Made by a program: the position numbers and the translations under genes. The notes under the pieces are model-generated. The model was not told the origin of the DNA, did no database searches, and was given only the letters and a program-made list of their open reading frames with translations. Below are positions 6,091 through 46,384 of a stretch of 64,000 nucleotides of DNA, in pieces; positions within the stretch are counted from its first letter, which is position 1, and the number at the start of each line of letters is the position of its first letter. Source of the DNA: Dehalococcoidia bacterium (GTDB taxonomy: Bacteria; Chloroflexota; Dehalococcoidia; Plut-88900); contig CBDBLV010000005.1 of the NCBI GenBank assembly GCA_965207225.1, positions 992,001-1,056,000 on the forward strand, written 5' to 3'.

Positions 6091-6177
6091 TGGTGCCGAG
6101 GAAGGGGTTCGAACCCTTATGGGATTACTCCCAACGGATTTTAAGTCCGTCGCGTCTGCCAATTCCGCCACCTCGGC
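6091..6177 (-). tRNA. tRNA-Leu(TAA)
   Basis: Cloverleaf with long variable arm, anticodon TAA, CCA end. Confidence 0.96.
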
Positions 6178-6244
6178 CCGCATAACTTCTTCATTATAAA
6201 GAGACGCAGGCCCGATTTACCGGGCCTGCGCTCTTTCTTCCTTT

Positions 6245-6319
6245 TGGAGGCGACGGGCGGATTCGAACCGCCGATAGAGGTTTTGCAGACCCCCGCCTTA
6301 ACCACTTGGCTACGTCGCC
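6245..6319 (-). tRNA. tRNA-Cys(GCA)
   Basis: GGCGACGTAGCCAAGTGG...CTGCAAA...TTCGAATCC...CCA. Confidence 0.96.
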
Positions 6320-6320
6320 C

Positions 6321-6395
6321 TGGAGCGGAAGACGGGATTCGAACCCGCGACCCTCTCCTTGGCAAGGAGATGCTCTACCACTGAGCCACTTCCGC
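6321..6395 (-). tRNA. tRNA-Gly(GCC)
   Basis: GCGGAAGTGGCTCAGTGG...TTGCCAA...TTCGAATCCC...CCA. Confidence 0.96.
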
Positions 6396-6418
6396 TTGTA
6401 TGTTGTCCTGTTAAGGTT

Positions 6419-6505
6419 TGGTGCCGAGGAGGAGATTTGAACTCCTACGAGCTTTCGCTCACTGCCCCCTCAAGACAGCGTGTCTACCGATTCCACCACC
6501 TCGGC
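6419..6505 (-). tRNA. tRNA-Leu(GAG)
   Basis: Long variable arm, anticodon GAG, CCA end. Confidence 0.95.
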
Positions 6506-6601
6506 AAGCAGATTTTCTCTCCTCCCTTGCTCGCCCTCGACCCCCTTATCTTGTTGCCGAGGCCGTCACGATCATATCACTCCCAGCCCGGCCTTTTCGA
6601 A

Positions 6602-6677
6602 TGGCAGGAGTGGGAGGACTCGAACCCCCGACCTGCGGTTTTGGAGACCGCTGCTCTTCCAGCTGAGCTACACTCCT
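6602..6677 (-). tRNA. tRNA-Trp(CCA)
   Basis: AGGAGTGTAGCTCAG...CTCCAAA...TTCGAGTCC...CCA. Confidence 0.96.
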
Positions 6678-12454: not shown

Positions 12455-12706
12455 CAAGCACCTATCGAAAAAACACGCCCTATCCCGCCCCTCAACCAGT
12501 TCATCTTTGTCCCTGGTGTGGGGCCCCTCACCCTGAGGCCACTCGAAGAGCCTGCCCCTGCGAAGGCAGAGGGTCGAGCGGGGGGGTGGCCCACATCTCT
12601 CCAAACCATCACACCCGTCTTACCCCATTCCACACCCTTCCCTGTCATTCCGAGGCCCCGCGAGGAATCTAGGATTTGCCCGCTCATGCTCTTTACCTCC
12701 CTCCCC

Positions 12707-12856
12707 CTTCTCCCCAGTACTGAACTAGAGGGCTACGTGGGTGCGCAGCACCCACGTAGCCCTTTGTTCTTCTCTCCCCCTCTCCCTTAAAGGCCCTAAG
12801 AGCCTGCCCCGAGTCCCTCGAGGGGGAGAGGGGGATCAAGGGGGTGAGGGTTCCCC
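12707..12856 (+). repeat. composite palindromic repeat, copy A
   Basis: Shares CTTCTCCCCAGTA-TGAACTAGAGG...GTTCTTCT...CCCCTCTCCC...GGGAGAGGGGGA...GAGGGTTCCC with 13782-13907 and 44122-44246. Confidence 0.9.
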
Positions 12857-12892
12857 TAAGGGGTCGAGGGGCATCCCCCCGAAATTGCACAT

Positions 12893-12921
12893 TTGCACTA
12901 CATGAACCCCCGTGCTATACT
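12893..12921 (+). promoter_or_regulatory. sigma70-type promoter TTGCAC-17-TATACT (extended -10 TG)
   Basis: Sequence match and spacing; precedes the putative ncRNA. Confidence 0.7.
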
Positions 12922-12927
12922 ACACTC

Positions 12928-13545
12928 TAGGGCCACCGACCTCGTACCTCGGGGCCCATCACAGGAAAGGAACAAGGAGTTTATGAGACGCAACAGCCTG
13001 ATCAGCTCTCGTCGCACCCGGACACTGCGCGAACGCCCGGCTACTGACACGCGCCTCAGCCCCTCACCCTTTCCTACCAGGCGATGGAAGGTCCATCGAC
13101 CACACGCGGCATACCCATCTTTTGGGTCCATCCCGCGTCTGCGCCCCCTTAAAGGCGCACTCACCCCCGGCTACAGGCCAGGGGGACGACCCGACACCCT
13201 CGGGTCCCCGGAGGCCATCGCGCCCCGGCTCGACTCCCCCGTCGCTTCCTTCGGAACTCCCCCATACCACGGCGACGGGAAGGGGTATACGCCCGACCCC
13301 CTCCGAACGGTCGGAAGCGTCTGGGGTTCATACCCCTTTCTGGGCTCCCCCGTCTTACCTCTCGGAGACCCCTGTTCACCCGGAGACGGCAGAGAGTTCG
13401 CGCTCCCATCCCTCCGAATGGTGGAGCGCTTCCCGCATACGGACAGGCCGCAAAGGGAAACTCCCTCTAATCCTGCCGACATGTGGGTCTGGCGCAGCCT
13501 GGCCTCCCGGCCCCTGCGCCTTGGTCATGGTCCTTCCATCGCCTA
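12928..13545 (+). ncRNA. candidate large structured ncRNA, copy 1 (class unknown)
   Basis: 17/18 bp helix 13079-13096 with 13527-13544; two kissing-loop modules; homologous to 43557-44043 with compensatory changes. Confidence 0.6.
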
Positions 13546-13781
13546 CACCCCCCTTCCCACCACCATCCTTACCGTCATTCCCGACCCTGATTGGGAATCC
13601 ATAGGCGGGGGTTCCGCTCGCCCTGAGCAGAGTCCAAGAGCCTGCCCCGAGTCCCTCGAGGGGGTCTCAAGAGCGGAACGAGGCGGGGTTCCTCCCTGGC
13701 GCGGGACCGCAAACACCAACCAACGCCCCTCACACTGTCATTCCGATGCCCCGCGAGGAATCTGGGGTGGTGTCCTGTCTT

Positions 13782-13907
13782 CTTCTCCCAGTATTGAACT
13801 AGAGGCAGAGGTTGGCGCTTTAGCGCCAACCTCTGCCTCTGTTCTTCTCTCCCCCTCTCCCTCAACGGCCCTGAGGGAGAGGGGGATAAAGGGGGAGAGG
13901 GTTCCCC
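13782..13907 (+). repeat. composite palindromic repeat, copy B
   Basis: Same frame as copy A; central hairpin AGAGGCAGAGGTTGGCGC-TTTA-GCGCCAACCTCTGCCTCT. Confidence 0.9.
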
Positions 13908-14149
13908 CTGCACCATGCGAAATCCCCAGAAAACCCTTTAGGCGTCGTTCAATCAAAACAGCTATGAGTTCAATCAATGTTCAATCAAAATCCCACCCTC
14001 CGCAACTGAAGAAAATCCACCGTCTTGCCAATCTGTCGGCCCGACATACGGGCTTGACGCTCAACCTGGTGGGCGCGCAAAATCATCAGCGAAAACCACA
14101 CCCCGGGGCCCGGTTCAGGCCCCGCAGAAAGCATACACAGGAGGCCCAG

Positions 14150-14308
14150 ATGCCCCAGATAATCGTCAAACCCAATTCCGTCGCGCAGATTTCCCTCAAA
14201 CCCCTTCCCTTTATGCCGAGCATCCCCTTCAACATCACCAACGTCAGCAACGTGAACCTTCGGGTCACGGCTCAGGGCAACAATATCCAGTTGAAAGAAG
14301 CCGAATAG
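14150..14308 (+). CDS. small hypothetical protein (52 aa)
   Basis: AGGAGG SD before ATG; TTGACG...CAAAAT promoter-like sequence near 14054. Confidence 0.5.
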   Translation: MPQIIVKPNSVAQISLKPLPFMPSIPFNITNVSNVNLRVTAQGNNIQLKEAE

Positions 14309-14377: not shown

Positions 14378-14424
14378 TTGACACTAAAATCGGGTGGGTG
14401 CTACAATTGTGAGCGCAATCACAC
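14378..14424 (+). promoter_or_regulatory. etfBA promoter (TTGACA-18-TACAAT) with overlapping TGTGA-N6-TCACA operator (Rex/CRP-type)
   Basis: TTGTGAGCGCAATCACAC at 14407-14424. Confidence 0.65.
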
Positions 14425-14498: not shown

Positions 14499-15299
14499 AT
14501 GAACATCATTGTTTGCGTGAAGCAGGTGCCCGATCCCCAGATGCCCCTGGCCAGCTTCAGGATCGACCCGGCTACTAACAAGCTAGTCCCAGCCCCCGGC
14601 ATTCCCCCGGTCATCAACGGCTACGATGAGCAGGCCGTCGAGGCGGCCCTCCGGTTGAAAGAGGGTGGGGACGCCAAGATCACCGTCCTGTCTATGGGCA
14701 CCAACCTTGTGTCCGACGTAATTAAGAAGCCCCTCTCTATGGGCGCCGACGAACTGGTCCTTCTCCAGGACGACGCCTTCGAAGACTCCGACGACTACGC
14801 CACCGCCCGAGTTCTGGTCGCCGCGATCAACAAGATCGGGGACTTTGACATCGTCATCTGCGGCCGACAGTCATCGGACTTTGACACGGGTATCGTTGGG
14901 GCGGGTGTGGCGGAACTGCTCGGCATCCCCATCGTTCCTATAATCAGGGACGTTAAGATGGTGGACGGTACGGTCCGGATAGAAAGGGTGGTTGCCGACG
15001 GCTACGAGGTAGTCGAGGCTGCTCCTCCGGTGCTTGTAACGGTCAGCAATGAGCTTGGTGAGCCTCGATACCCGACCCTGCGCGGCATCATGGCCGCGGG
15101 CCGCAAGCAGCCCACCGTCTGGTCTGCCGCGGACCTGGGGATCGATGCCTCCGAGGCCGGCCTCTCCGGTTCCAAGGTGAAAATCATGAAGCTCTTCCAG
15201 CCCGAAAAAGTCTCCCAGTGCGAGTTCATAGAAGGCGACAGCCCTGCCGAGGTTGGCGCAAACCTTGCCCTCAAGCTCCGGGAAGACAAGGTAATCTAG
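14499..15299 (+). CDS. etfB: electron transfer flavoprotein subunit beta
   Basis: VCVKQVPD, D..AVE.ALRLKE, G.QS.D.DTG, PRYP. Confidence 0.96.
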   Translation: MNIIVCVKQVPDPQMPLASFRIDPATNKLVPAPGIPPVINGYDEQAVEAALRLKEGGDAKITVLSMGTNLVSDVIKKPLSMGADELVLLQDDAFEDSDDYATARVLVAAINKIGDFDIVICGRQSSDFDTGIVGAGVAELLGIPIVPIIRDVKMVDGTVRIERVVADGYEVVEAAPPVLVTVSNELGEPRYPTLRGIMAAGRKQPTVWSAADLGIDASEAGLSGSKVKIMKLFQPEKVSQCEFIEGDSPAEVGANLALKLREDKVI

Positions 15300-41724: not shown

Positions 41725-43344
41725 CTAGCGCCGGGACCGTGACGGGTTAGGGAACGCTCCAAAATTGCTCGGCCCCCCACCGGTTCCCTGACCTCTTCCT
41801 TTCTTTCCACCCTTCCGTTTCTTGCCCTTGGACTTGCCTCCACCGCGGCCCGGAATGAAGATGTCCAGGTCCTCGGCGAACCTCAACTCCGTTGCCGGAC
41901 GGTAGATTTCCTGCTCCGTGCTTGGCCAAATGTCCTCTATTGCCTGGGGAACGGCCTCGGGGAATTCGGGTTCCGAGAAGCCATCCAGGTCCGGCTCGAT
42001 GTCGTCGATGGCGGTCATCTCGGCTACCGGGACCAGTTCCTCGGGCACGGCAACTTCTTCGACCGCCACCGGTTCCGGCGCCTCTGCCTCGACGGGTTCA
42101 TCAGCGAGGGCGGCAGCGGCCTCTTCGGCGACTGCAACAGCCTCTTCAATTACTTCGGCTGCGGCTGGGACGGCTTCCACCGGTTCGGGAGTCTCAGCCT
42201 CAATTGCGGTGGCCTCTGCTTCTACGGCTACCGGCTCGGGGGTGGGCTCCTCCACCTTGGGCGCCGGCTGAGTCAGGGCTGCTATGGCGGCCGCCCGGAT
42301 CTTGCTTTCTCCGGCATCGCTCACACCCTTGATGTCAATTCTCCATCCTGTGAGCTTGGCCGCTAGCCTGGCATTTTGCCCTTCCTTGCCTATGGCCAGG
42401 GAGAGGTGTCGGTCTGCCACCACCACTACGGCCGATTCCTCTTCCTCTTCAATCTCCACCCGAGCAACCTGTGCGGGACTCAGAGAGTTTGCGATGAAAA
42501 TCGAGGGGTCTCTGTCCCATTGCACTACGTCGATTTTCTCGCCGTGGAGCTCGTTGACTATGTTCTGTATGCGGATGCCCCGCAGTCCCACGCAGGAGCC
42601 CACCGGGTCTATGCCTTCCTGCCTCGCCGAGACGGCGACCTTGGTCCGGTATCCCGCCTCCCGGGCTATGGACCGTATCTCGACGGTGCCGTTGTAGACC
42701 TCCGGGACTTCAAGCTCGAAGAGGCGTTTCACGAGGTCTTTGTGGGTACGGGAGACGATGACCTGGGGGCCCTTCACACTGCGGCTGACCTCCAGAACCA
42801 GCACCTTCATCCTCTGTCCCGGGCGGCAACGCTCGGTGGGGGGAATCTCGGGTGCGGGCATGACCGCTTCCGTCTTGTCTATGTCGACGATCACCTGCCT
42901 GGGCTCGAGGCGCTGCACTATGGAGCTGGCGATCTCGCCTTCCCGCTCGGAGAACTCCTGGTAGACGAGCTCCCGCTCCGCCTCCCTGAGCCGCTGCATG
43001 ACGACCTGCTTGGCAGTCTGCGCTGCGATGCGGCCCGCAAACTGGCCAGTCGCCTCAATCTCTATGACATCCCCAACGGCGGCGCCCTTCTGGTATTTGC
43101 CTGCTTCCTTCGGGGTGATTTCGAGCTCGGAGTCGGCCACTTCTTCGACGACCGTCTTCAGGGTGGCGACCTTCACCTCGCCGCTGTTGGGGAGGATCTT
43201 GACCGACAGGTTCTGACCGGAAGTCTCGCCTTCTCTCTTGTACACGGAAACGAGGGCTGCTTCGATGGCGGAGATCACCACTTCGCGCGGCAGGTTTCTC
43301 TCAGAGGCAAGCTGAGTTACCGCGATTAGAAAATCGCTCTTCAT
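41725..43344 (-). CDS. nusA: transcription termination/antitermination factor NusA
   Basis: GRIAAQTAKQV, EVPE, AREAG.RTKVAV, AIGKEGQNARLAAKLTGW. Confidence 0.97.
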   Translation of the reverse strand: MKSDFLIAVTQLASERNLPREVVISAIEAALVSVYKREGETSGQNLSVKILPNSGEVKVATLKTVVEEVADSELEITPKEAGKYQKGAAVGDVIEIEATGQFAGRIAAQTAKQVVMQRLREAERELVYQEFSEREGEIASSIVQRLEPRQVIVDIDKTEAVMPAPEIPPTERCRPGQRMKVLVLEVSRSVKGPQVIVSRTHKDLVKRLFELEVPEVYNGTVEIRSIAREAGYRTKVAVSARQEGIDPVGSCVGLRGIRIQNIVNELHGEKIDVVQWDRDPSIFIANSLSPAQVARVEIEEEEESAVVVVADRHLSLAIGKEGQNARLAAKLTGWRIDIKGVSDAGESKIRAAAIAALTQPAPKVEEPTPEPVAVEAEATAIEAETPEPVEAVPAAAEVIEEAVAVAEEAAAALADEPVEAEAPEPVAVEEVAVPEELVPVAEMTAIDDIEPDLDGFSEPEFPEAVPQAIEDIWPSTEQEIYRPATELRFAEDLDIFIPGRGGGKSKGKKRKGGKKGRGQGTGGGPSNFGAFPNPSRSRR

Positions 43345-43383
43345 ACCGGCCGTACCCTCCAATCCCGACTTCTGGCCGCTATT

Positions 43384-43407
43384 AAAAAAAGTGGGTTGCG
43401 CCCACTT
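43384..43407 (-). terminator. leader terminator/attenuator upstream of nusA
   Basis: AAGTGGG-CGCAA-CCCACTT-TTTTT downstream of the promoter TTGCAA-18-TATAAT (43463-43434). Confidence 0.8.
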
Positions 43408-43556
43408 CCTGCTACGGACCTTAAGTTGGTGGGATTATATCAGAGCCATAAGACTCCTTGCAAGGCCGTGCACCCGTTCGGCGGGGTTGGTTACGGGCCG
43501 GTTTTTTCTTCAGTTGTGGGGTTTTCATTTTCGTTTTGTCCGTTTTGGAGGGGGTC

Positions 43557-44043
43557 GGCGATGGAAGGTCCGGGACTCGGTTTCAGGGGGCGGGAGGCCA
43601 GCCTGGTTCAGCCCCGTGTTCCTGTGTCACATGGCAGACAAGCGAGGGGTTCTCGCCAGAGGGCATCTCTACCACCAGTTTTTCAGTTTGGCTCGACCCA
43701 CTCGGAGGGGTGGGGAACACGTTTTCTCGCTGCCGTCGCTGGGTTAAGGGGAATCTCCGAGGGGAACGACGGGGGAGATTTTTCCAAGGGCCATAAGGCC
43801 CGAGGTTTTTCGGCAGGGCTCCTATATGAGGAGCGTGCCGTTTAATGTTGTGGACCTTCCATCGCCTGGAAGGTCAGGGAAGGGGCACGGGACCCGTGGT
43901 GAGGAGACAACGCCGTTGGCTTGGGCCGCGGGCCTGCGCGAGGGCCTTTGGGCTGGGTCGGGGCGTTGAGTCCTCGGGGTCGGGTCTCGGGGGCTTCCCT
44001 GGGTTTTTGGATCCTCCTTAAGGTTGGTGTCGGGTCTAGACTT
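43557..44043 (-). ncRNA. candidate large structured ncRNA, copy 2 (class unknown)
   Basis: Perfect 15 bp helix 43852-43866 with 43557-43571; one kissing-loop module; homologous to the 13 kb locus. Confidence 0.6.
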
Positions 44044-44049
44044 AGAACA

Positions 44050-44078
44050 AATATAAAGCTCAAATGTTTACATGTCAA
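44050..44078 (-). promoter_or_regulatory. sigma70 promoter TTGACA-17-TATATT
   Basis: Near-consensus hexamers at 17 bp spacing, directed into ncRNA copy 2. Confidence 0.75.
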
Positions 44079-44121
44079 GGGGCATGTCACAATTTTGTGG
44101 GAATATCCCCCCGGCCCCCAA

Positions 44122-44246
44122 GGGAACCCTCACCCCCTGTATCCCCCTCTCCCTTATAGGCCCTAAGGGAGAGGGGGAAAGAAGAACAGAGGCAGGCGTG
44201 GGTGCAACGCACCCACGCCTGCCTCTAGTTCAATACTGGGGAGAAG
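44122..44246 (-). repeat. composite palindromic repeat, copy C
   Basis: Reverse complement matches copies A and B; central hairpin AGAGGCAGGCGTGGGTGC/GCACCCACGCCTGCCTCT. Confidence 0.9.
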
Positions 44247-44368
44247 GGAGGGGAAGAGTGAAAAACAGGGGATATACCTGCCCCAACATCTGCCTTTAGT
44301 TTTGTACTAGGGAAGATGGGGGTGGTTCAGTCCTGAAAAAGCGATCCAAGTCTTAGCGTGGGTGGCGT

Positions 44369-44492: not shown

Positions 44493-46157
44493 TCAATTCG
44501 CCCGGGCGGTTAGCTCAGTTGGTGAGAGCGCTGCGTTGACATCGCAGAGGTCACTGGTTCGAGTCCAGTATCGCCCACCAGACTTGACGGTAGACAGAAC
44601 CGGGGCGTGGAGAGCCACCTCCTCGGCGTCCCTTCCCCCTATGGGAGCATCCTCCGGCATGGGTATGGAATAGCGCAGCAAAGCGTTGCCGGGCATCACC
44701 ACGATCTCCTTGACGAAGGACTCGATGAAGGCTCTACGCTCGGTCAGTTCGCTCTCGTTGAGGAACCTGCTCATGTCCAGGGCGTAGGCCGTGATGGTCT
44801 CCACGTCGTCCAGCACCTCCCTGCGCTGGGAGAGGATGGCCCTAGCCTCCTGTGCTGAAGTCTCCAGCTTCTCCTGGCGCTCCCGGTGGTCTCTGATGCG
44901 GGGCTTGAAGTCCTCGATGTCCAGGTCCGTGGTCTCCGCCAGGTCGTAGAGCCGTCCCAGCCTGCGCTTCACGTCCTCAAGTGCCGCCTCGATGGTCTGA
45001 AGCTTCTGGCGCTGCTCCCTGGCGATGCCGTCCATCTCCTCGTCCACCAGCTTCACCAACTCCCGGATGTTGGACTCGGTGAGCACGTTCTCCCGTATCT
45101 TGCCCATCACCATCTCCTCGAAGCGACGGGCGTTGAGCCTGGGGGTCTCGCAGGCGTCCCTGCCCCGCTTCATGATGGACTGGCAGACGTAGTAGGCGTA
45201 CTTCCCGCTCTTGGCGTCCTGGCCGCTGAGTGCTCCGTCGCACGCCTTACACTTGACCATCCCGCTGAGCAAGTAGGTGCTCCCCACACGGCGGGGATGG
45301 GTCCGCTTGGGAGCCCTTCTGCGCATCCGACTGTTCACCCTCTTGAACTGGGCCTTGGAGATGATTCCGGGGAACGCCTTGTCCACCCGTACCGGCTCGG
45401 CCTTGTCCTTCCCGCCGACGCCCCAGAGGAGGGTTCCCGTATAGGCTTCGTTGCGGAGGATGATGTGGACGCCGTTCTTGGACCAGAGCCTCCCCGTGGG
45501 GTTGGCGATGCCCTCGGCGTTGAGGGTCTGGGCGATGTCCAGGATGCCCCTTCCCGACTCGGCCATGGAGAAGATGCGCTGCACCACGGGAGCGGTGGCG
45601 GGATCGGGTTCCAGCGTAGGGCGCTTCTTGGCCCCGTCCTGCACCATGCGCTTCTGGTAGCCGTAGGGCACCCTGCTGGCAACCCAGAAGCCGCGGGAGG
45701 CGGCCTCCCGCATTCCCCGTCGAACCTCCTCGGCCAAATTCTCCGAGTAAAACTCGTCCACGGACTCGATGATGGCCTCCATGAGCCTGCCGGTGGCGGA
45801 GTCGTCGGCGTGCTCGGTGATGGAGACGACGCGGACGCCCTTCCTTCTCAGCATGGACTTGAAGGCGACGGCGTGCTCCCGCTTGCGGGTGAACCTCGAA
45901 AACTTCCAGACCAAAATCTCCGCAAACGGGGCCTCCGGCTTGCTGGCCTCGTCCAGCATCTTGCGGAACTCCGGCCTGTCGGCGATGCGTCCGCTCTCAG
46001 CCTCGTCGATGTACTCCCGTGCCACGACGTAGCCGTTCTTGTCGGCGTAGTCGCGCAATGCCCGCAGCTGGGCGGCGACGGACAGGTCCACGTCCTGGCG
46101 GTCGCTGGAGACCCTGGCGTACAGGGCCACGGGAGTCGGGGTTGTTTCGTTAATCAT
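44493..46157 (-). CDS. large serine recombinase (integrase)
   Basis: YARVSS catalytic motif, recombinase domain (PYGY), zinc ribbon, coiled coil; 3' end runs antisense through the tRNA. Confidence 0.95.
   Translation of the reverse strand: MINETTPTPVALYARVSSDRQDVDLSVAAQLRALRDYADKNGYVVAREYIDEAESGRIADRPEFRKMLDEASKPEAPFAEILVWKFSRFTRKREHAVAFKSMLRRKGVRVVSITEHADDSATGRLMEAIIESVDEFYSENLAEEVRRGMREAASRGFWVASRVPYGYQKRMVQDGAKKRPTLEPDPATAPVVQRIFSMAESGRGILDIAQTLNAEGIANPTGRLWSKNGVHIILRNEAYTGTLLWGVGGKDKAEPVRVDKAFPGIISKAQFKRVNSRMRRRAPKRTHPRRVGSTYLLSGMVKCKACDGALSGQDAKSGKYAYYVCQSIMKRGRDACETPRLNARRFEEMVMGKIRENVLTESNIRELVKLVDEEMDGIAREQRQKLQTIEAALEDVKRRLGRLYDLAETTDLDIEDFKPRIRDHRERQEKLETSAQEARAILSQRREVLDDVETITAYALDMSRFLNESELTERRAFIESFVKEIVVMPGNALLRYSIPMPEDAPIGGRDAEEVALHAPVLSTVKSGGRYWTRTSDLCDVNAALSPTELTARAN
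44504..44580 (+). tRNA. tRNA-Val(GAC), integration target
   Basis: GGGCGGTTAGCTCAG...TTGACAT...TTCGAGTCC...CCCACCA; promoter TTGACT-17-TAGACT at 44465. Confidence 0.96.
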
Positions 46158-46384
46158 GCCTGTCCTCCTTCGTCTTGGTCGGTCTTTGCAACCGTGCGGG
46201 AGCGCAGTCTCTCCAATCGCTCCCGTCTGCGCCACTCCCGCTCCTCCATGAACAGGCGTATACCCTGCCGGAGGAGCTCGCTCACGGAGAGGTCGTCCTC
46301 ACGCATCACCCTCCGCACCTGGGCTTCCATCTCCGGGGGCAGCGAGAAGGTGATGGTCTTGGATCGTCGGGTACTGGTCGGCAT
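46154..46384 (-). CDS. ribbon-helix-helix (CopG-like) regulator
   Basis: ITFSLPPEM...SVSELLRQGIR; ATGA-coupled to the recombinase. Confidence 0.85.
   Translation of the reverse strand: MPTSTRRSKTITFSLPPEMEAQVRRVMREDDLSVSELLRQGIRLFMEEREWRRRERLERLRSRTVAKTDQDEGGQA

Follow-up and report, generated by a model that had tools for sequence, protein, structure and literature searches.

Promoter-bearing cassettes with folded RNA cores in Dehalococcoidia: a putative genus-restricted family of DNA-copied, RNA-selected repeats

Interspersed repeats of bacteria are usually short palindromes, and large folded noncoding RNAs are usually present in single copy. CREE-type elements measure ~100–150 bp, are bounded by their own inverted repeats and come with a target duplication; the large ornate noncoding RNAs OLE, GOLLD, ROOL, HEARO and raiA occur in one or few copies per genome. 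The cassette family considered in this study unites the two kinds of element. It is represented by two loci in a stretch of 64,000 nucleotides (hereafter the window; positions 992,001 to 1,056,000 of contig CBDBLV010000005.1, assembly GCA_965207225.1, Dehalococcoidia bacterium): copy 1 on the plus strand (12893–14015) and copy 2 on the minus strand (43500–44078). Position numbers are window coordinates throughout, and the genome of the window, with a completeness of 92.3%, is referred to as G000. As stated in the accessible parts of the pertinent reports, CREE is a target of RNase III and differs in its presence between strains (PMC2649163; PMC2229807, PMC10969869), and reused or "mobile" promoters are highly similar promoter-bearing upstream regions found before unrelated genes of one genome (PMC3575422). 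The transposable elements TnGBS, ISLre2 and ISKra4 are described, in the part of the source available, as inserting upstream of the −35 box of sigma-A promoters in conserved orientation, with the p-MULT 4 group recorded in Chloroflexi among other phyla; promoter-targeting Mutator-like elements insert 15–17 nt upstream of the −35 box and have terminal inverted repeats, direct repeats and their own transposase (PMC3942029). Lastly, the STAB-SD of Bacillus cry3A is presented, in the accessible portion of its account, as a Shine-Dalgarno (SD)-like 5′ untranslated sequence that does not initiate translation and that binds 30S subunits and blocks RNase J (PMC4113751).

With moderate confidence, both loci are understood here as members of an undescribed, genus-restricted family of transcription cassettes that are copied as DNA and selected as RNA. 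About 1% of the genome is made up of ~47 such units, each with a promoter of its own and fixed in position and orientation relative to host promoters, among them those of rpoB, nusA, rpsB, rpsO and tRNA synthetase genes, as well as leuS and katG. A literature search by arm sequence and by topic, with subscription journals and supplementary files outside its reach, returned no account of the family; text matches to the arm were unrelated primers.

Copy number, distribution and unit anatomy

The initial annotation had presented copy 1 as a candidate large structured RNA present twice, with copy 2 as its one paralog. The genome holds many more. Searching G000 by blastn with both cores returned 14 full copies of the copy-2 type (91–100% identity) and, for the copy-1 type, 3 full copies with 4 related ones, in addition to many loci that share only the two core ends. 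Pairing of both 15-nt arms delimits 31 units with cores of 307–464 nt in at least seven size classes. A wider census, for which arm, leader box and 3′ arm were needed, gives 47 units with cores of 198–553 nt, 40 of leader type A and 7 of type B; these motif-based counts require the invariant arm halves, and variants without them are invisible to both censuses. A noncoding RNA gene in two copies is ruled out by such a number. Taking together all loci fetched, 103 distinct cores fall into 12 BLAST clusters. The leader-A motif has 41 sites in G000, 40 with a core and one cut off, and a search among the 41 for empty shells, in which the leader would be joined straight to the tail, found none. Given that every intact type-A leader (40) has a core, the core is no separate insertion into an empty shell. 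The site that is cut off (G000:C1:66973, plus strand) is a disrupted family member, in which the type-A leader ends after ~150 nt and unrelated coding-like sequence follows on the opposite strand.

By BLAST, the family is present in all eight other genomes of the genus and in none of the 32 other genera sampled. The arm 15-mer, allowing at most one mismatch on both strands, occurs 65 times in G000 and 24–64 times in the eight congeners. Three sister genera within its family yield 2, 1 and 0 occurrences, and the reversed-pattern control gave 0–2. A covariance model of the central P4–P6 domain of the core (model R1; 92 positions, 20 pairs) matched G000 and all five congeners sampled, and gave no match in 145 other Dehalococcoidia genomes from 109 other genera. 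Scanning one genome for each of 185,579 species with an exact 22-mer of the 3′ arm yielded 74 loci, 73 of which are in 8 assemblies titled "MAG: Dehalococcoidia bacterium"; arm invariance among these loci is given by construction. The 74th locus, in a Kribbella MAG (metagenome-assembled genome), was rejected as a family member: the 22-mer stands alone there, and partner arm, leader and tail are all missing. An 18-mer scan of viral contigs gave a single match, which lacks a partner arm, lies within coding-like sequence and is attributed to chance. In metagenome contigs, the two-arm pattern had no match, and the 22-mer was found in one contig of 1,242 nt, which carries a tail and the 3′ portion of a core ahead of the same ATP-grasp gene as in G000. 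Public runs that contain the stretch are sponge metagenomes and metatranscriptomes, with word shares (0.10 for run X1 and 0.05 for run X2) that alone are no evidence of habitat. Across the genomes compared, the family is restricted to one apparently sponge-associated genus of Dehalococcoidia.

Alignment of the 14 copy-2-type loci together with their flanks revealed that the repeat extends far beyond the core. The whole unit, about 600–1,000 bp, runs from promoter to leader with SD-like box, core, C/A-rich tail and end segment, with leaders of 70–310 nt, cores of ~200–550 nt and a closing helix of 15–18 bp. The promoters of these 14 loci exist in three sequence variants, each with TTGACx-17-TAxxxT. 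The 5′ stretch of their type-A leader is A-rich and ends in AAGGAGGAACCAAAAACCC, after which none of the leaders aligned has a start codon; optional hairpin inserts follow, and a CAGGGAAG:CUUCCCUG helix closes the leader. Type-B units have another promoter and another leader, the latter with the equivalent helix AGGAAAGG:CCUUUCCU; they share the arms and extend further on the 3′ side. The tail ends in CCCCACAACUGAAUA, and the last segment of the unit resembles CCGAACGNGTRCAC. Anatomy was scored in 99 of 105 members, the other 6 having flanks too short for the purpose. A promoter match by regular expression lies upstream in 98/99, compared to 8.1% of random 400-nt windows; the SD-like box AAGGAG(G) is present in 97 and the tail motif in 92, at a median of 36 nt past the 3′ arm. 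A second promoter match was obtained in 33/99 (median 93 nt past the arm) and a terminator-like hairpin within 300 nt in 24/99. Mean composition of the 70 nt past the arm in 104 members is A.37, C.395, G.139 and T.097. Many units have REP-like 19-bp hairpins with a T-rich run beside them on the same strand. The features listed in the initial annotation, that is, promoter, AAGGAG leader, CTGGCCTCCCG motif and CAACTGAAGAAAA tail, were all found in place by sequence reading and scans.

RNA structure, coding potential and known families

Both cores fold better on the sense strand than any of 100 dinucleotide shuffles (z of −8.22 for core 1 and −6.24 for core 2). For 34 copy-2-type cores, the RNAalifold consensus comprises about ten helices round a multi-way junction closed by the arms. 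Its 91 pairs are 95.5% paired, and 12 of them have changed on both sides, as compared to 5.7 ± 1.5 in shuffled alignments (0/500 as high) and 3–9 in slid controls. Model R1 identifies 31 P4–P6 domains in G000, two of them in tandem in copy 1, and 73 domains in 100 loci. Across subfamilies (64 distinct sequences, 20 pairs), 94.6% of the cells pair, against 86.1% when shuffled; double-sided change affects 10 of the 20 pairs and 88 cells, where shuffles give 24.9 ± 3.8 cells and slid controls 6–28; and the covariation score is 0.301, against 0.158 in shuffles and 0.03–0.065 in slid controls. For both alignments, 0/500 shuffles attain the number of double changes observed, with slid controls 3–6-fold lower. 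On the promoter strand, G-U and U-G combinations exceed A-C and C-A combinations (167 vs 53, and 109 vs 29). Covariation is seen in the leader helix between leader types and also in the outer half of the closing helix, which is AGGUCC/GGACCU-like in 34/47 units and AGACGC/GCGUCU-like in 13/47, both versions being complementary. With compensatory change beyond controls and a G-U excess on the promoter strand, the conservation of the helices is of the RNA type. The inner half of the closing helix, GGCGAUGGA/UCCAUCGCC, is near-invariant, and some copies keep U-U or A-C mismatches there. These mismatches are tolerated and not compensated, which suggests that the sequence itself is recognized.

Several structural proposals of the initial annotation could be followed through in this way. 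Pairing of the arms confirmed the closing helices of 17/18 bp in copy 1 and 15/15 bp in copy 2, and its statements that pairing survives sequence divergence and that reading frames are not conserved agree with the compensatory changes and with the coding analysis below. The additional GGCAG:CTGCC helix, proposed for both copies, is absent from the consensus fold, in which the bases pair as CCGUCG:CGACGG and UGGUAGA:UCUGCCA. We also considered a pairing of the SD-like box of the leader with the CCUCC loop of the 3′ hairpin and rejected it: subfamilies that lack CCUCC keep the same leader, hence there is no covariation.

No Rfam family accounts for either locus, as the initial annotation had supposed in placing the RNA outside the known families. 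At gathering scores, Rfam 15 finds only 6 tRNAs in the whole window and nothing in the two loci; five of the window's tRNA genes form a cluster at 6094–6677 (minus strand). Relaxing the search to E ≤ 10 gave 81 and 61 sub-threshold matches in the two loci, nearly all of which fall on REP-like palindromes; core 1 has none, and core 2 has one at chance level (sR16, 13.8 bits, E 9.6). Eight loci with other core types had no matches in Rfam, and HEARO in particular was matched neither there nor at the two window loci.

That one of the strands encodes a small or low-complexity protein is practically negligible as an explanation. Copy 1 offers an ATG 7 nt behind AAGGAG and an open frame at 12983–14308, the C-richest core types (7/31 copies) are free of stops on the sense strand, and many copies are open through at least 90% of the core in the antisense direction. 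However, all three sense frames contain stops in 24/31 cores, and the SD-like box of type-A leaders is not followed by a start codon. Most gap runs in the 34-sequence alignment are not multiples of three (59 are, vs 310 and 72 not), and third codon positions have no surplus of substitutions (419/373/324). As for the open frame of copy 1, it crosses REP-like palindromes and is expected from the very low A+T content.

Genomic sites, rival explanations and mode of action

Orientation was counted with our own crude codon-bias gene finder, and the Pfam check covered 20 downstream genes plus nusA and the ETF gene. The next downstream gene is on the same strand in 29/30 strict units and in 42/46 units of the wider census, compared to a baseline of 0.69 for adjacent genes, while the upstream neighbor is on the same strand in 22 cases and on the opposite strand in 25. 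No unit of the census overlaps a predicted gene, and when all genomes are counted, a gene on the same strand is no farther than 1,500 nt away for 99/105 units. The downstream genes confirmed by Pfam encode LeuRS, a KatG-type peroxidase, deformylase, MoaA, FBPase_3, RpoB, ribosomal proteins S2 and S15, and GlnRS/GluRS; an RNase D-like exonuclease, three amidohydrolases, an ATP-grasp protein, an M24 peptidase and a CoA-transferase; and PrpD/MmgE, a radical SAM protein, a luciferase-like oxygenase and a Rieske protein. Of the two window loci, copy 2 stands ahead of nusA, and copy 1 ahead of a 52-aa open reading frame (ORF) and then the ETF gene.

Comparison of filled and empty sites is most complete for nusA. 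In 4/9 genomes (G000, G008, G007 and G005), a tRNA gene and the nusA promoter have the cassette between them. It is missing from G001, G002, G004 and G006, where the tRNA is ~90 nt from the promoter, and G003 has no arm within 1,500 nt. The native nusA promoter TTGCAA-N18-TATAAT is kept in 9/9 genomes. The site in G005 has leader and tail as in G000, an unrelated core and the second version of the arm. At two more sites, other species have the cassette, positioned between back-to-back promoters, and G000 has none, and at all three of the filled/empty sites compared, the right end of the unit adjoins the −35 box of the target gene's promoter. Of 57 clusters of downstream genes, 30 hold units from at least two genomes, and 20 of these 30 orthologous positions carry different core clusters: positions therefore persist and cores turn over.

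These sites bear directly on the idea that the family is selfish repeated DNA, a non-autonomous mobile or recombining element whose palindromes matter as DNA and whose RNA is without function. It would account for the many copies that are 91–97% alike within a type, their presence or absence between species, the mosaic of promoter variants, leader inserts and cores, the wealth of other repeat modules in the genome, and an inner arm half that is conserved in sequence and does not covary. It also has a precedent, according to the available part of the source, in the fixed-orientation transposons TnGBS, ISLre2 and ISKra4 upstream of sigma-A promoters (PMC3942029). Nonetheless, we consider it quite unlikely. 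The symmetry of double-stranded DNA would not yield a preference of ~3–4-fold for G-U over A-C on the promoter strand; internal helices show compensatory changes; the promoter and the SD-like box are kept in nearly all members scored; the inverted repeat is internal to the unit; and positions persist between genomes. A target-site duplication was seen neither at nusA nor at the two further filled/empty sites, where flanks of only 79–90% identity could let short ones escape. The initial annotation had itself named a miniature inverted-repeat transposable element, with many copies and target-site duplications, as what would overturn it; the many copies exist, and the duplications were not seen at the three sites. 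The inverted repeat (15–18 bp) encloses the core only, promoter, leader and tail being repeated outside it, and the search of the outer ends for other repeats was not exhaustive.

Searches for a transposase covered the ISKra4, ISLre2, Y1_Tnp, TnpB-like and IS110 families. By profile search, the ISKra4 transposase is absent from 9/9 genomes of the genus, and G000 has no Y1 (RAYT-type), TnpB-like (PF07282) or IS110 (PF01548) transposase; ISLre2 was likewise not found in G000, a weak negative in view of a positive control that gave no signal. Four genes with a reverse transcriptase (RT) domain are present (G000:C2:158087–158773, C5:1548409–1549095, C5:1553608–1554405 and C5:1671488–1672288), two of them identical frames of 586 aa and two of ~640–650 aa with a split RVT_1 match, and nothing was seen to tie them to the cassette family. 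Retrotransposition is argued against by the repeated unit itself, which contains its own untranscribed promoter, hence is copied at the DNA level.

Placement upstream of, and co-oriented with, genes that include some for aminoacyl-tRNA synthetases and ribosomal proteins could make a large folded RNA appear as a gene-specific cis-regulator, a sensor of riboswitch, T-box or attenuator type 5′ of each gene. By eye, the 5′ arm could pair alternatively with nearby look-alike segments. We regard such a sensor as very improbable. The downstream genes are functionally unrelated, the core type differs between species at 20/30 positions and some species have no cassette at all; there is no expression platform, and at nusA and the two other sites the native promoter is placed between RNA and gene; Rfam returned neither a riboswitch nor a T-box. 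The candidate competing segment CCCUUCCC, just upstream of the arm, was tried as an "anti-closing-helix" that would make the 5′ arm a switch, and rejected: it is unchanged when the outer half of the arm changes, and pairs more likely with GGGAAG in the leader.

An expression module acting in cis, composed of a second strong promoter and a long processed 5′ leader, with the folded RNA and SD-like box stabilizing or insulating the mRNA, is an unlikely explanation and yet one with more to recommend it. The co-orientation of 42/46 units with the downstream gene, the right end adjoining the native −35 box at the three loci compared, the lack of a terminator-like hairpin within 300 nt in 75/99 members, and the many highly expressed housekeeping targets (RpoB, S2, S15, LeuRS, GlnRS/GluRS, NusA, deformylase) are all in its favor. 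Promoter reuse (PMC3575422) and CREE, which creates promoters and binds RNase III (PMC2649163), provide precedents, as far as the accessible parts of these sources extend. Against it, a stabilizer or insulator has no need of ~ten conserved helices with conserved loops; native promoters are retained beside the cassette, and the same promoter is found in congeners without it; the C/A-rich, G-poor tail resembles a Rho loading site ahead of the gene; and 24/99 members have a terminator-like hairpin after the tail.

Six contig pieces (85–99% likeness) from one sponge metatranscriptome, X2, lie on 43207–43361 (nusA), 43498–43683 and 43793–44019, which comprise tail, core and leader of copy 2, and one of them continues into a different core type. 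No X2 contig covers 44051–44300 (REP-like repeats and promoter), where the DNA runs X3 and X7 are deepest, or 43684–43792; gaps between contigs are given no weight. The X2 contigs show presence in an RNA library, and transcription from the cassette promoters is putative.

According to the mechanism that we propose for the DNA-copied, RNA-selected cassettes, each unit would be fired from its own promoter to give a stable folded RNA. The SD-like box at the 5′ end might act like STAB-SD in blocking RNase J, and the invariant closing helix could be a recognition or processing site, with RNase III as the obvious candidate. Precursors of rRNA have processing stems, and the closing helix between conserved leader and trailer resembles them. 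Most transcripts would then be ended by the rut-like, C/A-rich tail or by a REP-like hairpin, and the remainder read into the neighboring gene. RNase J, RNase III and Rho are each encoded in G000 with scores above the curated cut-off. Copies would spread and be homogenized as DNA, through recombination or gene conversion with one another, and cores would be swapped between conserved leader and tail, which give the homology for gene conversion and hence for both the homogeneity of copies and the core swaps. A generic RNA role, such as that of a protein- or ribosome-binding RNA, is favored over gene-specific sensing, given that the target genes are unrelated and that core types can replace one another ahead of a given gene.

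A number of points weigh against this explanation. The antisense strands of the cores likewise beat their shuffles (z of −6.69 for core 1 and −4.36 for core 2). Covariation within the copy-2-type cluster is modest (RNAalifold term of −0.83 kcal/mol), since the copies are close relatives; the P4–P6 figures lean to structure, coming as they do from related copies in an alignment fitted to the model; and relatedness of copies within and between genomes makes the statistics overstate independence. Arms that are conserved in sequence and contain mismatches fit a protein or DNA recognition site as well as an RNA helix. That the unit ends at the native −35 box relies on three loci, the second promoter being found by regular expression in only 33/99 members. 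It is by analogy that processing at the closing helix, a STAB-SD effect and termination by Rho are proposed. The data on cassette RNA are assembled contigs of the one run X2, with no information on strand, start or end, and DNA can be present in an RNA library; X1, the other RNA run, covers only 43239–43427, that is, the start of nusA and the untranslated region just 5′ of it. Just 24/99 members have a terminator-like hairpin within 300 nt.

A bolder proposal, which we hold to be unlikely though with a real chance, is a new class of RNA gene: a modular, self-promoted "ornate" RNA, in dozens of copies per genome and with exchangeable cores set between conserved leader and tail, that occupies a slot upstream of host promoters and uses its closing helix as the handle for a dedicated processing or binding factor in a genome-wide role within an uncultured symbiont of sponges. 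The closing helix could then be cut, so as to release or even circularize the core, and the role might, for example, be to titrate ribosomes or an RNA-binding protein via the SD-like and CCUCC loops. Should the RNA be functional, the family would represent a new multi-copy RNA class, for which core swaps and presence or absence constitute a ready comparative data set. Should it be selfish, it would reveal a new route of persistence for a repeat, by way of a promoter and a folded RNA placed beside promoters, with no recognizable transposase. Either way, it affects the annotation of genes, promoters and 5′ ends in long-read genomes of symbionts.

The window loci and their relation to known systems

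Each of the two loci has its own sigma70-like promoter, as initially annotated. That of copy 1 (12892–12921, plus strand) reads TTTGCA-18-TATACT with a TG and agrees at 9/12 positions, TTGCAC-17-TATACT being an alternative reading. Directly 5′ of it, a terminator-like, REP-like 19-bp hairpin with the T-rich run TTCTTCTCTC (12726–12766, plus strand) belongs to a separate and very abundant repeat family, with the same module at 13800–13841 and 44227–44187. The composite form of this REP-like repeat (12700–12870, 13780–13905 and 44100–44260, the last on the minus strand) is made up of the 19-bp hairpin, TTCTTCT and a second palindrome, CCCCCTCTCCC...GGGAGAGGGGG, and it has the deepest coverage of the stretch in two DNA metagenome runs (1,372 and 8,425, compared to ~100–250 and 400–1,900 for the cassette). 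The type-B leader of copy 1 (12929–13079, plus strand) has AAGGAG at 12974–12979 followed by ATG at 12983, and its helix pairs AGGAAAGG (12963–12970) with CCUUUCCU (13068–13075). Among type-B leaders, ATG stands behind AAGGAG in 5/7, and inspection of the alignment by eye showed the frame to be broken by a 1-nt indel ahead of the arm.

The core of copy 1, 464 nt in length (13080–13543, plus strand), has its arms at 13080–13094 and 13529–13543 and a minimum free energy (MFE) of −234.9 kcal/mol. In its closing helix (13079–13096:13527–13544), the one position out of 18 that is not paired is a U-U mismatch, and the helix is retained in the MFE fold. The two P4–P6 domains lie at 13229–13317 and 13340–13429 (plus strand; model R1 matches G000:C5:1005229–1005317 with 45.1 bits and G000:C5:1005340–1005429 with 60.9 bits), and CTGGCCTCCCGGCCCC is found at ~13499–13514 on the same strand. 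The 3′ extension common to type-B units (13544–13795, plus strand) includes the hairpin modules GTCATTCCCGA...TCGGGAATCC and GTTCCGCTC...GAGCGGAAC, and the same sequence is found 3′ of other type-B copies. These modules (13571–13700; also downstream of G000:C5:128814 and C3:167328) recur beside cassettes and elsewhere, and intergenic regions of the genus are mosaics of several repeat families. The REP-like, terminator-like hairpin 3′ of core 1 (13800–13841, plus strand) is a possible 3′ end of the copy-1 transcript. The tail motif CAACTGAAGAAAA of copy 1 (14003–14015, plus strand) is located 460 nt past the 3′ arm, compared to ~36 nt as the norm. The length of 500–650 nt initially assigned to the RNA is tentative: in copy 1, other repeat modules, including this hairpin, are interposed between the end of the 3′ arm (13543) and the tail motif (14003).

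Past the tail, a second promoter-like site (TTGACG-18-CAAAAT, 14054–14083, plus strand) is followed by the 52-aa ORF (14150–14308, plus strand), which has a good AGGAGG-ATG start and no match in a Pfam search, by a stronger promoter-like site (14378–14407, plus strand) and by the ETF gene (14499–15299; domain by Pfam). The 52-aa ORF is in the same frame as the long, composition-driven open frame that begins at 12893.

Copy 2 is laid out on the minus strand. A REP-like, terminator-like hairpin (44227–44187) lies 5′ of the promoter TTGACA-17-TATATT (44078–44050; 11/12), and the type-A leader (44043–43867) has AAGGAGG at 44019–44013, with no start codon behind it, and the helix CAGGGAAG (44001–43994):CUUCCCUG (43882–43875). 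The core of 310 nt (43866–43557; MFE of −131.7 kcal/mol) is bounded by arms at 43866–43852 and 43571–43557, which are fully paired, and includes the P4–P6 domain at 43690–43782 (model R1 match G000:C5:1035690–1035782) and, at 43601–43586, CTGGCCTCCCGCCCCC, the same 3′ motif as in copy 1. The C/A-rich, G-poor tail (43556–43500) contains CAACTGAAGAAAA at 43516–43504. The right-end segment CCGCCGAACGGGTGCACGG (43483–43465) adjoins the −35 box of the native nusA promoter, and a CCGAACGNGTRCAC-like end is beside the −35 box at two other filled sites too. The native promoter (TTGCAA-18-TATAAT, 43463–43434, minus strand) is outside the cassette and kept in congeners without it; the NusA domains of the gene product were identified by Pfam. 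In the stretch from this promoter to the start of nusA, a GUGGG-loop-CCCAC hairpin with at least seven T behind it (43393–43420, minus strand) is conserved upstream of nusA in G000–G009; it resembles an intrinsic attenuator of the nusA leader and could serve NusA autoregulation. On the other side of copy 2, a gene for a large serine recombinase of 580 aa (44493–46235, minus strand; Resolvase, Recombinase and Zn-ribbon domains) overlaps with its 3′ end the adjacent tRNA (44504–44577, plus strand). Since the recombinase overlaps the tRNA, and the sequence past this tRNA in G000 is unlike that in G007 and G005, an integrated element at this tRNA in G000 is suggested.

Regarding the described systems, the cassettes share with CREE/NEMIS of Neisseria, and with ERIC, BOX and RUP, as portrayed in the available parts of the sources, the many dispersed intergenic copies beside genes, the foldable inverted repeats and the capacity to supply promoters. 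They differ from CREE in being ~600–1,000 bp in size and in having an internal inverted repeat, a covarying multi-helix interior and interchangeable cores, with no target duplication seen. Compared to reused promoters, in so far as their account could be consulted, the cassette couples the promoter to a conserved folded RNA of ~300–550 nt and places it upstream of a second, native promoter. With the p-MULT elements, it has in common the fixed orientation (42/46) and a place upstream of the −35 box, its right end being beside that box at 3/3 sites compared. Unlike them, its right end at nusA is a few nucleotides from the −35 box, hence closer than 15–17 nt, and no direct repeats were seen. The likeness to ornate noncoding RNAs consists in a length of several hundred nucleotides, many helices, conserved loops and no evident catalytic or coding role; the difference lies in ~47 copies, each self-promoted and fixed relative to neighboring promoters, and in the lack of an Rfam match. 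Guide RNAs of mobile elements (omega RNA, bridge RNA) have TnpB/IscB or an IS110 recombinase as partners, and G000 gave no match to PF07282 or PF01548. As for STAB-SD, AAGGAG(G) in 97/99 leaders, the lack of a start codon after the box in all 14 type-A leaders aligned and the presence of an RNase J gene are points of agreement; ATG follows in 5/7 type-B leaders, however, and the host is a member of the Dehalococcoidia, not a Firmicute. Judged by their defining features, the cassette family conforms to none of the systems compared, be it CREE-type repeats, reused promoters, promoter-targeting transposons or ornate noncoding RNAs. Its nearest analogues are promoter-bearing interspersed repeats with inverted repeats that fold in transcripts, as CREE is described in the accessible part of its source (PMC2649163).

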